From: Candidatus Bathyarchaeota archaeon
GTDB lineage: Archaea > Thermoproteota > Bathyarchaeia > 40CM-2-53-6
Reading direction: 5' to 3'
Assembly (NCBI GenBank): GCA_963726255.1
Contig: CAVSBL010000002.1
Span: 928,001 to 992,000 of the forward strand
DNA length: 64,000 nt
The notes beneath the pieces are model-generated. The model made no database searches, was not told the origin of the DNA, and worked only from the letters and a program-made list of their open reading frames with translations. Below are positions 5,540 to 7,721 of this stretch, in pieces (within the stretch, counting starts at the first letter, position 1; each line of letters begins with the position of its first letter). A program made the translations under genes and the position numbers.

Positions 5540-6037
5540 TCATTCGCGTAGTTCTTCAATTGTGTCACCTTGCGCGGCTTCGCCTTCCTCTTCTACGCTC
5601 GCGTACCAGCCCCTCCGCTGGTAGAGGGCTTTCACAATATCATTGTCCTTTCCAGCGTATGAAAGCACGTATAGGTTTGAGCACGGGTCGCAAGGCTTGG
5701 TGATCTTAATCACAGCTCGCCCAATTTTGTATCGCTTCCCCGGAGCGAAGCTGCTGTATGGGATTCGTGACGTTGTGAAATTTTCGCCAATATCTCCCGG
5801 TTTGATCGGCCAGCCTTCCCTGTTGAGTTCTTGAATTGTCTCGATGGGCATGAGAAGCACAGCCATCGCAGGGTCATCGTGCGCTTCCTCATGCCGCCAT
5901 CTGTTGAAGTCGCCTACAAGCCCATTCCGTTTCACTAACACACGATCAACCGGCCTCTTCGGGAGTCCTCTTTCACCATGCGCCTCCGCTTTGACATTGA
6001 TTTGGCGCACTTCACCTATGGCCCGTTCAGAATTCAT
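5540..6037 (-). CDS. MOSC domain protein
   Basis: GLVGD, GENFTT, PCDPC and RGWYASV motifs. Confidence 0.9.
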
Positions 6038-6620
6038 GATGCTCAGCCGAGCTTTTGCGTCTTGAGTGAGATTTAATGATTGACTGGGCGCTTACGCCGA
6101 CCGGCGACGCCCCCTCTAGGTTCAGAGCCTTCTCGTAAACTTCGTAGTCGGATTGCGAGAAGCAGACAAAGATAATCTTCTCGATGCTCTTCGTATTCTC
6201 GATGGCCTCGCTCACAGTTCGGGCGGCGATCGGTGCAGCTCTTTCGATCGGGAAGCCGTAGGCGCCTGTGCTAATAGAGGGGAAAGCGGTTGTTTTGACT
6301 CCATTATCTTCTGCCAAGTTCAATGAGTTTCTGTAGCAGTTTCGAAGGAGCTCGTCTTCACCTGCTTTTCCGCCTCGCCAAACCGGGCCCACCGTATGGA
6401 TCACGTGTTTTGCTTGTAGATGGTACGCTTTGGTGATTCTTGCTTCTCCGGTGGGGCAGCCGCCGATTCTGCGGCATTCCTCCAAGATTCCAGGGCCAGC
6501 GGCCCGGTGAATGGCACCGTCCACTCCACCACCACCTAGCAGAGTCGTGTTGGCAGCGTTCACAATTGCGCCAACCTTTTGCTTCGTAATATCGCCGAGC
6601 ACTAGCTCAATCTTCGCCAA
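6027..6620 (-). CDS. Macro domain O-acetyl-ADP-ribose deacetylase (YmdB-like)
   Basis: [19 protein letters not shown] and [12 protein letters not shown] motifs. Confidence 0.95.
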
Positions 6621-6667: not shown

Positions 6668-7174
6668 CTAGTCTAATCCGTAGGGCTTAAGGAACGTGAC
6701 CACACGCTCCTTTACGGCAAAGTACAAAATCGAACCGAGTATGCCTATGGCTATAATGCTCCCCAGCATGACTTCAGCCCAACCGGTTACGATGGGAATT
6801 GCAAAAAGGTAGCTAAGGTAACTGCCTACAATCAGGCTGACTACGAGGATCTCGACAGCTACCCCAACCATTCCCCATGATTTGGATTTGTGGCGTGCTA
6901 TACGCCATGCAATGAAGGTTGCCAGAAAGTTAGCGATCGCTCCGCCCACCATGTCAACGGGCCCCAAGCCTCCGAAAATATTGGCGACCAAGGCACCAAG
7001 CGACAAACCCACAACGGCTGGCCAACCAAAAAGCATGGCGAGCGGCAGAAGTGCGTCTGCTACTCTCACTTGGAATGGCAGGAAACTAATTTGTGCGAGA
7101 ACCACTACGCCCACTGCGTAAACGGCTGCGAACACCGCCGTCAAAGTGACAGATACCGATTTCTTGCTTTTCAC
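6668..7174 (-). CDS. queT: QueT family transporter (7-deazaguanine precursor uptake)
   Basis: ISFLPFQVRVADAL, GLSLGALVAN..G.LGPVD.VGG signature; SD GGGAGG upstream. Confidence 0.85.
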   Translation of the reverse strand: MKSKKSVSVTLTAVFAAVYAVGVVVLAQISFLPFQVRVADALLPLAMLFGWPAVVGLSLGALVANIFGGLGPVDMVGGAIANFLATFIAWRIARHKSKSWGMVGVAVEILVVSLIVGSYLSYLFAIPIVTGWAEVMLGSIIAIGILGSILYFAVKERVVTFLKPYGLD

Positions 7175-7177
7175 TAC

Positions 7178-7254
7178 GTAACCTCCCTACTCCGGGGTTT
7201 TGTTCGGCGCAACGGGTGGGAGGCCCCACTCATGCGCCTCTATGGCGCAAACAA
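7178..7254 (-). promoter_or_regulatory. Structured 5' leader of queT, candidate riboswitch/translational switch
   Basis: Alternative pairings of GGCGCA with two UGCGCC copies, GUGGG/CCCAC hairpin, AACAAAAC tail, and anti-SD CCUCCC complementary to SD GGGAGG. Confidence 0.45.
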
Positions 7255-7338
7255 GGTCAAATCAGAATTAAGTCTTTCCGACACTGCGGGAAGGTTAAGA
7301 AAAATGTAGGAAAGGCCGCTAGGCCTTTCAGAAGTCGT

Positions 7339-7488
7339 CTACGCGACGGCTGCGCGGTTCTGTAGTTTTTTGCTCGCTTCTAGCAGCTTCTCGCGTGTCT
7401 TCGAGTTGCCGAGGACACCGGCTACGACTGCGCCGATTGCGAAGGATGCGAGGGCTAGGGCGAAGCTTCGTCTGGATTCTGCACTCAT
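7339..7488 (-). CDS. Small single-pass membrane protein (49 aa, YtxH-like architecture)
   Basis: MSAESRRSFALALASFAIGAVVAGVLGNSKTREKLLEASKKLQNRAAVA with SD GGAGGT; not in ORF track. Confidence 0.75.
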   Translation of the reverse strand: MSAESRRSFALALASFAIGAVVAGVLGNSKTREKLLEASKKLQNRAAVA

Positions 7489-7721
7489 TTGTTTTCTTAC
7501 CTCCTGTGATTGCGATTCGAGAGTGCAGTTAGTGTTTGAGGTATATTAATGTACCATAAATGAAACATTCATATACCAACAACCATGTAAGGTCTGGTCA
7601 TGGCAACCCGCCCGGTTGGACATGGTGGAATAGTCATAAGCCCGAAATCCTCCTCAACCCCACCAACCCATTTCTCCATGCCCACCGTCGGGCCGCCAAT
7701 GCGCGAAGAGGTGAAATTCTC

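Follow-up and report, generated by a model that had tools for sequence, protein, structure and literature searches.

The closest described systems to the leader reported here are the preQ1 riboswitches of classes I, II and III. Class I (preQ1-I) is a small H-type pseudoknot, built from a short G+C-rich stem, an A-rich linker and a 3' strand that overlaps with the Shine-Dalgarno sequence (SD) and pairs into the loop of the stem; its ligand, preQ1 or preQ0, is contacted by a conserved C in the loop, an A in the tail and a U in L1. Class II (preQ1-II, the COG4708 or queT motif) is located upstream of queT in Lactobacillales, and has the SD in a pseudoknot helix together with an embedded hairpin. 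Class III (preQ1-III) is associated with queT and has a pseudoknotted aptamer, with a length of ~100 nt and a separate SD-sequestering platform. In the part of PMC5372724 that treats these genes, preQ1-I is linked to 7-deazaguanine genes, which it controls at the level of translation, and bacterial queT genes are often found behind preQ1 riboswitches. According to the archaeal part of a 2017 review (PMC5473149), few riboswitch classes are known in archaea, all of them bacterial classes, and only TPP, fluoride, rare FMN, Mg2+-I and guanidine-II riboswitches are named there. No archaeal queT leader or preQ0 riboswitch was found described in the full texts searched, the supplementary motif lists of which could contain one.

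We analysed a stretch of 64,000 nucleotides from a Candidatus Bathyarchaeota archaeon (assembly GCA_963726255.1, contig CAVSBL010000002.1, positions 928,001 to 992,000 of the forward strand), hereafter the window, to which all plain coordinates refer. A preliminary description had proposed a riboswitch-like leader with an anti-SD upstream of an archaeal queT in this window. We found that this leader belongs to a conserved motif, and we describe its helices, its distribution and the genes associated with it.

The queT locus and its leader

The letters of the minus strand from 7172 to 7254 were identical to the transcript in the preliminary description, and the gene downstream is indeed an archaeal queT: ORF 6668-7174(-) matched the QueT family (PF06177, E = 3.7e-28), with 99.1 bits against a gathering threshold of 33.7. 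The NCBIfam search returned no equivalog for this protein, so the substrate of QueT in archaea is taken from the name of the Pfam family. The features of the locus are listed below, with the conservation counts referring to the 124 leaders described in the next section.

6668..7174, minus strand: queT coding sequence, 168 aa, ECF-type S component, PF06177
7172..7174, minus strand: queT start codon GUG, from the ORF list; in relatives the start codon lies a few nt 3' of the SD
7182..7193, minus strand: 3' strand of the pseudoknot, GG-A-GU-A-GGGAGG, with the SD within it
7194..7205, minus strand: A-rich linker and C run, GAACAAAA CCCC (L3 of the pseudoknot)
7206..7211, minus strand: 3' strand of stem P1, UGCGCC, pairing with the P1 5' strand
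7211..7213, minus strand: invariant junction GUU, the last U of which closes P1; G in 124/124, U in 120/124 and U in 124/124 leaders
7214..7223, minus strand: C-rich strand CCUCCCACCC, which is the loop and 3' arm of hairpin P2 and also the anti-SD strand of the pseudoknot
7225..7231, minus strand: 5' arm of P2, GAGUGGG (anti-anti-SD), competing for the C-rich strand
7232, minus strand: invariant junction U (L1), U in 122/124 leaders
7233..7238, minus strand: 5' strand of P1, GGCGCA, pairing with 7206-7211
7244..7249, minus strand: upstream UGCGCC arm of the preliminary description, outside the conserved element
7266..7278, minus strand: BRE/TATA-like promoter element GAAAG ACTTAATT, from the leader alignment

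The single-sequence fold of the leader was not significant alone (z -1.43), and the region 6900-7600 of the window gave no relevant match in Rfam 15 at E <= 10, including RF00522, RF01054 and RF02680. The case for the leader thus rests on comparison with its relatives. Alignment of 123 leaders on the first base of P1 revealed the consensus aaaAaatTTtTataa at -39 to -25, and the TATA centre was mostly located 26-33 nt upstream of P1. Archaeal TATA elements lie ~26-27 nt upstream of the transcription start; this usual spacing and the position of the BRE/TATA element would place the start ~0-5 nt before P1.

Further upstream of queT, a small ORF at 7339-7486 encodes 49 aa with one hydrophobic stretch. 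Past this ORF, at 7297-7329(-), a perfect hairpin, GAAAGGCC-UAGC-GGCCUUUC, is followed by a U-rich run and looks like a terminator, in which case queT would be its own transcription unit; the hairpin is kept in the closest relatives with its loop changed. On the other side, a Macro-domain gene (6027-6620, minus strand) is located 47 nt 3' of queT, and the MOSC-domain gene that comes next (5540-6037, minus strand) begins within its 3' end. The Macro-domain gene has no obvious link to 7-deazaguanine. Elsewhere, the genome of the window encodes QueC, QueD, an arcTGT-type TGT and four EcfT genes. It also contains a second, distant QueT-like gene outside the window (G000:C2:168502-168906; 31.5 bits, below the Pfam cut-off), at which no copy of the motif was found.

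Distribution of the motif and the genes behind it

When 61 related genomes were searched at the protein level, 43 of them proved to encode QueT and 30 loci were obtained, and the motif was located directly upstream of the queT start codon in 30/30. A covariance model of 62 positions (R1) was used for wider searches; it contained P1 and P2 only, with the pseudoknot not included. Its single match in the genome of the window (2.42 Mb) was the queT leader itself (79.6 bits, E = 1e-21). At E <= 0.01, R1 matched in 91/151 genomes of a sample of the class and in 30/151 genomes of a sample of the phylum that covered several other classes, three of the latter matches (19-24 bits) being judged false. 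Matches were also obtained in 10/121 genomes sampled from the phylum of an Asgard-labelled MAG, and four of these sit 0.4-1.4 Mb into their contigs.

Scanning one genome from each GTDB species for an exact pattern gave at least 120 loci. Among the exact-pattern matches listed, 89 loci were labelled Bathyarchaeia or Bathyarchaeota, on the pattern only and with no R1 score. The 31 other listed loci were scored with R1, and 24 reached 26-83 bits, with labels of Nitrososphaerota, Methanomethylicota, three Asgard, unnamed archaea and three bacterial MAG contigs. The remaining 7, all labelled as bacteria, failed R1, which is consistent with the ~14 chance matches estimated for the pattern. The three bacteria-labelled MAG contigs (L249, L257 and L259, labelled Methylomirabilota, Acidiferrales and Krumholzibacteriaceae) scored 83, 58 and 39 bits; QueT was found directly downstream in the two that were checked, and these may be archaeal contigs binned with bacteria.

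QueT was found in 112/151 genomes of the class sample, so that ~27 have QueT without a detected motif. Inspection of 20 motif-less queT leaders from this sample revealed nothing similar in 17-18 of them, a divergent form of the motif in two (L288 and L289) and an AU-rich possible analogue in one (L290, 5.5 bits). In a family of the same sample (f19; L279, L281 and L282), motif-less queT starts ~40-50 nt past a tRNA gene (57 bits) whose variable arm is long. In Rfam 15, preQ1-I, -II and -III were unmatched at E <= 5 in 20 further archaeal queT leaders without the motif, and the Rfam scans as a whole gave only chance matches and real tRNAs upstream of some queT genes.

We collected 129 R1 matches with their flanks. 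Five at 19-24 bits (L086, L087, L088, L140 and L141), with no QueT or no ORF downstream, were judged false, leaving 124 real instances. QueT was located downstream in 119/124. Pfam identified 111 (out of 120 callable downstream ORFs, one below the cut-off), and an HMM built from those proteins added 8, namely 7 with starts missed by the ORF rule and a frameshifted copy in L119. In this last locus (G105:C89), queT is spread across three reading frames and must be either pseudogenised or misassembled; a second, intact motif-queT pair is present in this genome. One motif of the 124 (L105) was followed by a contig edge. The other 4/124 (L040, L044, L058 and L091) precede a multi-pass membrane protein of 229-234 aa, the ORFs of which are as follows.

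L040:811-1497, minus strand: membrane protein ORF
L044:1566-2261, plus strand: membrane protein ORF
L058:1569-2270, plus strand: membrane protein ORF
L091:169-870, plus strand: membrane protein ORF

This protein had no match in Pfam or NCBIfam and no BLASTP similarity to QueT. Its nearest cluster in the ESM Atlas was 'ECF transporter S component' (0.95), which we take as no more than a lead; the protein may represent a new family of 7-deazaguanine transporters.

The next gene on the same strand was examined in the loci of one of the alignments described below (A3), where 65 segments were obtained, 4 that were part of the first gene were dropped, and 61 were scanned. This next gene encoded QueC in 17/61 loci, a Macro domain in 7/61 (the window included; all from the search of 61 related genomes) and DUF998 in 5/61. 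PreQ0 (7-cyano-7-deazaguanine) is the product of QueC and a free precursor of archaeosine. As the maker of preQ0 is the next gene in 17/61 loci, the motif heads a queT-queC unit in many lineages.

These gene associations bear on what the leader might sense. A real SD-sequestering switch could respond to something other than a 7-deazaguanine, such as a different small molecule that the QueT-like S component transports, a protein regulator, arcTGT, or a tRNA that is uncharged or unmodified. Such an effector would agree with the lack of an NCBIfam equivalog for QueT, whose archaeal substrate follows from a Pfam name, and with the four genomes in which the motif precedes a membrane protein of no known family that has only the ESM Atlas lead. 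However, we regard it as unlikely, given that the motif is tied to queT in 119/124 instances and to queT-queC operons in 17/61 loci. Because QueC makes preQ0, feedback by preQ0 is the simplest logic, and the small size and the invariant unpaired junction bases of the motif are typical of small-molecule aptamers.

Helices and invariant bases

Pairing was counted in two model-made alignments, A3 (76 rows) and A4 (53 rows), with the five false matches counted in. For P1 and P2 together, 96.6% (A3) and 94.0% (A4) of the cells were paired, with 7 and 7 pairs changed on both sides; for P1 and the pseudoknot, 94.8% and 92.0% were paired, with 10 and 7 such pairs. P1 was paired in 99.5% of its cells. 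One of its inner pairs was G-C in 46 sequences and C-G in 27, the swap from G-C to C-G being found in 27 (A3) and 4 (A4) sequences, and its closing pair was G.U in 73 sequences and A-U in the window. P2 was 95.2% (A3) and 88.9% (A4) paired, with 3 and 5 pairs changed on both sides, counts that lean towards P2 because P2 was included in R1. The two pseudoknot helices were 92.8-92.9% (A3) and 86.3-91.1% (A4) paired, with both-side changes in 6 and 5 pairs, and all of the 10/10 pseudoknot pairs checked in the window were standard.

Shuffle controls, which overstate significance as the sequences are related, reached the observed paired cells and covariation score in 0/500 cases; the A4 shuffles reached the observed numbers of pairs changed on both sides in 66/500 cases for the pseudoknot and 11/500 for P2. 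When the partner columns of the pseudoknot were slid along A3, pairing fell to 42-60%. Both the SD and the anti-SD are tied to the 3' end of 16S rRNA, and part of their complementarity would therefore be expected without a pseudoknot. Several leaders carried compensating changes between the two strands. CCUACC was found with AAGGAGG, giving U-A in 5 and 4 sequences where P2 has only G.U; UUUCCGAC with GUCGGAAA (L079 and L081); CCUUCC with GGAAGG (L029, L093 and L112); and GCCCCCU with AGGGGGC (L289). Where the 3' arm has no AC, the tail has no GU either.

In an alignment-free duplex test, the pseudoknot strands had a mean energy of -13.26 kcal/mol with their own partners versus -11.99+/-0.14 with shuffled partners, a value reached in 0/200 shuffles. 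That cognate strands beat shuffled partners supports co-evolution. The same crude test was weak for P2 (-7.31 versus -7.0+/-0.16, reached by some shuffles). In the window, P2 has a calculated energy of -8.0 kcal/mol and the pseudoknot helix -13.1 kcal/mol when nested or -19.1 kcal/mol as a free duplex, which are of comparable size.

The preliminary description had suggested a covariation check on archaeal queT leaders, and the pair counts support P1, P2 and the helix between anti-SD and SD. The GGCGCA/UGCGCC stem (7233-7238 with 7206-7211) and the inner hairpin, both noted there, are conserved and covary in relatives, far above chance in each case. The same is true of the internal CCUCCCAC and its complementarity to the SD region GU(A)GGGAGG. 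Taken together, covariation supports three predicted helices: P1, P2 and a 10-bp pseudoknot formed by the C-rich strand and GG-GU-GGGAGG. The C-rich strand (7214..7223, minus strand) has either 7225-7231 (P2) or 7182-7193 (pseudoknot) as its partner, and because the two helices share the strand 7214-7220 they are mutually exclusive. The conserved motif and its helices are almost certainly real. MFE folds contained a local hairpin in which CCCC pairs with the GGG of the SD; it was set aside since, by eye, the SD sequence varies but the C run does not.

Two other pairings had been proposed for this leader, in which GGCGCA toggles between an upstream and the downstream UGCGCC, and GGGG forms a pseudoknot with CCCC. 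Both complementarities are present in the window sequence, but their behaviour in relatives makes this mechanism hardly credible. A 6-nt Watson-Crick counterpart of the upstream arm was found in 1/124 leaders, that of the window, which equals the level in shuffled upstream sequence; with G.U allowed, the count was 27/124 leaders against ~19 expected. None of the closest relatives has the arm, and its position is probably upstream of the transcription start. The GGGG:CCCC helix was 83.4% (A3) and 77.5% (A4) paired, and two of its pairs had 14 and 23 (A3) or 16 and 18 (A4) unpaired cells. Compensation was lacking for changes in the G strand and for most departures from pairing.

The most conserved bases are largely outside the helices. 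In the 124 leaders, the P1 core, G9, U10, G29, U30, U31, A39, A41-A43, C45-C47 and G48 are each at least 97% conserved. Among them, A39, A41, A42, A43, C45, C46 and C47 reach at least 98% and are unpaired in both folds. The A-rich tail that had been pointed out in the window is thus conserved in relatives, again far above chance, with A39 and A41-43 invariant. Most of the invariant bases belong to the unpaired junction and the tail (GU, GUU and A-AAA-CCC-G), and these bases, mainly unpaired in both folds, would be placed around the point where P1 and the pseudoknot meet.

Minimal forms of the motif help to order its parts. A 51-nt form (L269) keeps P1, the junction, the tail and the pseudoknot and has little or no P2 competitor; the same parts are kept, with little or no competing arm, in forms of the type 'CCCC-AAAA-GGGAGG'. 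As the minimal forms keep the pseudoknot and largely lose P2, the pseudoknot appears to be the core fold and the P2 arm an added competitor, and because some variants have no P2 competitor, competition between two states is not universal. By eye, the loop before the pseudoknot strand lengthens with the pseudoknot helix, from 3 nt with 7 bp to 9 nt with 10 bp.

The stability of the SD-masking helix (-13 to -19 kcal/mol) and the variants without a competing P2 could also be explained by a leader that acts without a ligand, as a constitutive attenuator, an RNA thermometer or an mRNA-stabilising 5' structure masking the SD. We consider this improbable, more so than a switch with another effector. 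A generic attenuator would not be restricted to a single gene family in several classes and two phyla, ~10 unpaired bases are 97-100% identical while the helices vary, and the P2 arm is kept by compensating changes in most lineages, which argues for two selected states.

A candidate preQ0 switch and its relation to known riboswitches

The proposal of a structured, riboswitch-like anti-SD leader of an archaeal queT has strong comparative support from conservation in several classes and phyla, covariation, the presence of queT behind 119/124 motifs and the queT-queC operons. The leader probably acts on queT translation through a 7-deazaguanine precursor. From the comparative data we infer the transcription start, the direction of switching, the binding pocket, and the existence and identity of a ligand. 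The queT mRNA would start at, or a few bases before, 7238, and would carry a cis-acting translational riboswitch of ~57 nt. P1 (GGCGCA/UGCGCC) would enclose the C-rich strand CCUCCCACCC and offer it two alternative partners. In the ON state, expected without ligand, GAGUGGG would hold the C-rich strand as P2 and leave the SD free. In the OFF state, GG-GU-GGGAGG would form the 10-bp helix with the C-rich strand, giving an H-type pseudoknot with P1 in which the SD is buried and the A-rich linker (L3) runs along P1. The pocket would be composed of the unpaired invariant bases at the junction of P1 and the pseudoknot, namely the U after P1, the GUU before the P1 3' strand, and AAA-CCC.

The ligand would most likely be preQ0 (7-cyano-7-deazaguanine) or a close 7-deazaguanine. 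PreQ0 is the likeliest candidate because it is the free archaeal 7-deazaguanine, is made by the co-regulated QueC and is presumably what QueT carries. Its binding would stabilise the pseudoknot and so repress translation of queT, the importer gene, together with that of queC in the many lineages where the two are co-transcribed. We give a probability of roughly 0.6 to this reading as a whole, that is, to a ~57-nt SD-hiding pseudoknot riboswitch that is switched OFF by binding of preQ0 or a close 7-deazaguanine. Judged from the sequences, a preQ0-type riboswitch is also what the motif in general would probably be.

If this is true, the motif would add an archaeal class to the catalogue of riboswitches, provide a handle on how archaea regulate the supply of the archaeosine precursor, and exemplify, in these lineages, control of translation by a metabolite through the SD. 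The compact RNA motif is absent from Rfam and is carried by a large part of the genomes in several uncultured archaeal lineages, as well as by some from Asgard archaea, and it would annotate the regulation of queT and queC across hundreds of metagenome-assembled genomes. The four leaders before the 229-234-aa membrane protein would predict a new 7-deazaguanine transporter family.

The preliminary description had likened the leader to the class I preQ1 pseudoknot. The analogy holds, since both have a stem, an A-rich tail and a 3' strand that enters the loop, but membership does not, as no Rfam match was found. The motif shares with preQ1-I (RF00522) the H-type pseudoknot, the A-rich L3 and the 3' strand overlapping the SD. 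The second helix is 3-4 bp in preQ1-I, whereas it is 7-10 bp in the archaeal motif, the loop of which accommodates an anti-SD strand of 10 nt and, in most cases, the arm of a competing hairpin. The archaeal motif also differs in its GU/GUU junction, its tail ending in CCC and its archaeal hosts, and it has GUU just before the P1 3' strand in contrast to the loop C of preQ1-I.

With preQ1-II (RF01054), the motif has in common its place in the queT (COG4708) leader and the SD inside a pseudoknot helix. It is much shorter, its embedded hairpin shares the 3' arm with the pseudoknot so that the two are mutually exclusive, and it is found in archaea rather than Lactobacillales. PreQ1-III (RF02680) resembles it in the association with queT and the pseudoknot, but is ~100 nt with a separate SD platform, compared with ~57 nt and an SD within the knot. 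The motif might be a divergent member of one of these three classes, given that its queT context is that of bacterial preQ1-II and -III and its general design (a stem, an A-rich linker and an SD-bearing 3' strand entering the loop) is that of preQ1-I and -II. This is very improbable, as RF00522, RF01054 and RF02680 were unmatched in Rfam 15 at E <= 10 both in the window and in 20 diverse homologous leaders, and the junction bases (GU ... GUU ... AAA-CCC-GG) and the 10-bp second helix are unlike those of the known classes.

Like the fluoride and TPP riboswitches, which respond to an ion or a small molecule and are the classes common in archaea, the motif would represent ligand control in this domain. 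Those are bacterial classes that are also found in archaea, whereas the queT motif is, among the matches listed, archaea-labelled save for three bacterial MAG contigs, and it has no Rfam model. As in riboswitches generally, it combines a conserved structured 5' leader, covarying helices and invariant unpaired bases with a single pathway. At slightly better than even odds, it would be a fourth, structurally distinct preQ class and the first native to archaea, a pseudoknot of ~51-62 nt in Bathyarchaeia-labelled, other Thermoproteota and Asgard genomes that senses preQ0 and controls import by queT and synthesis by queC. Our reading of the aligned leaders is that the motif would constitute a new structural class of riboswitch, an H-type pseudoknot that sequesters the SD.
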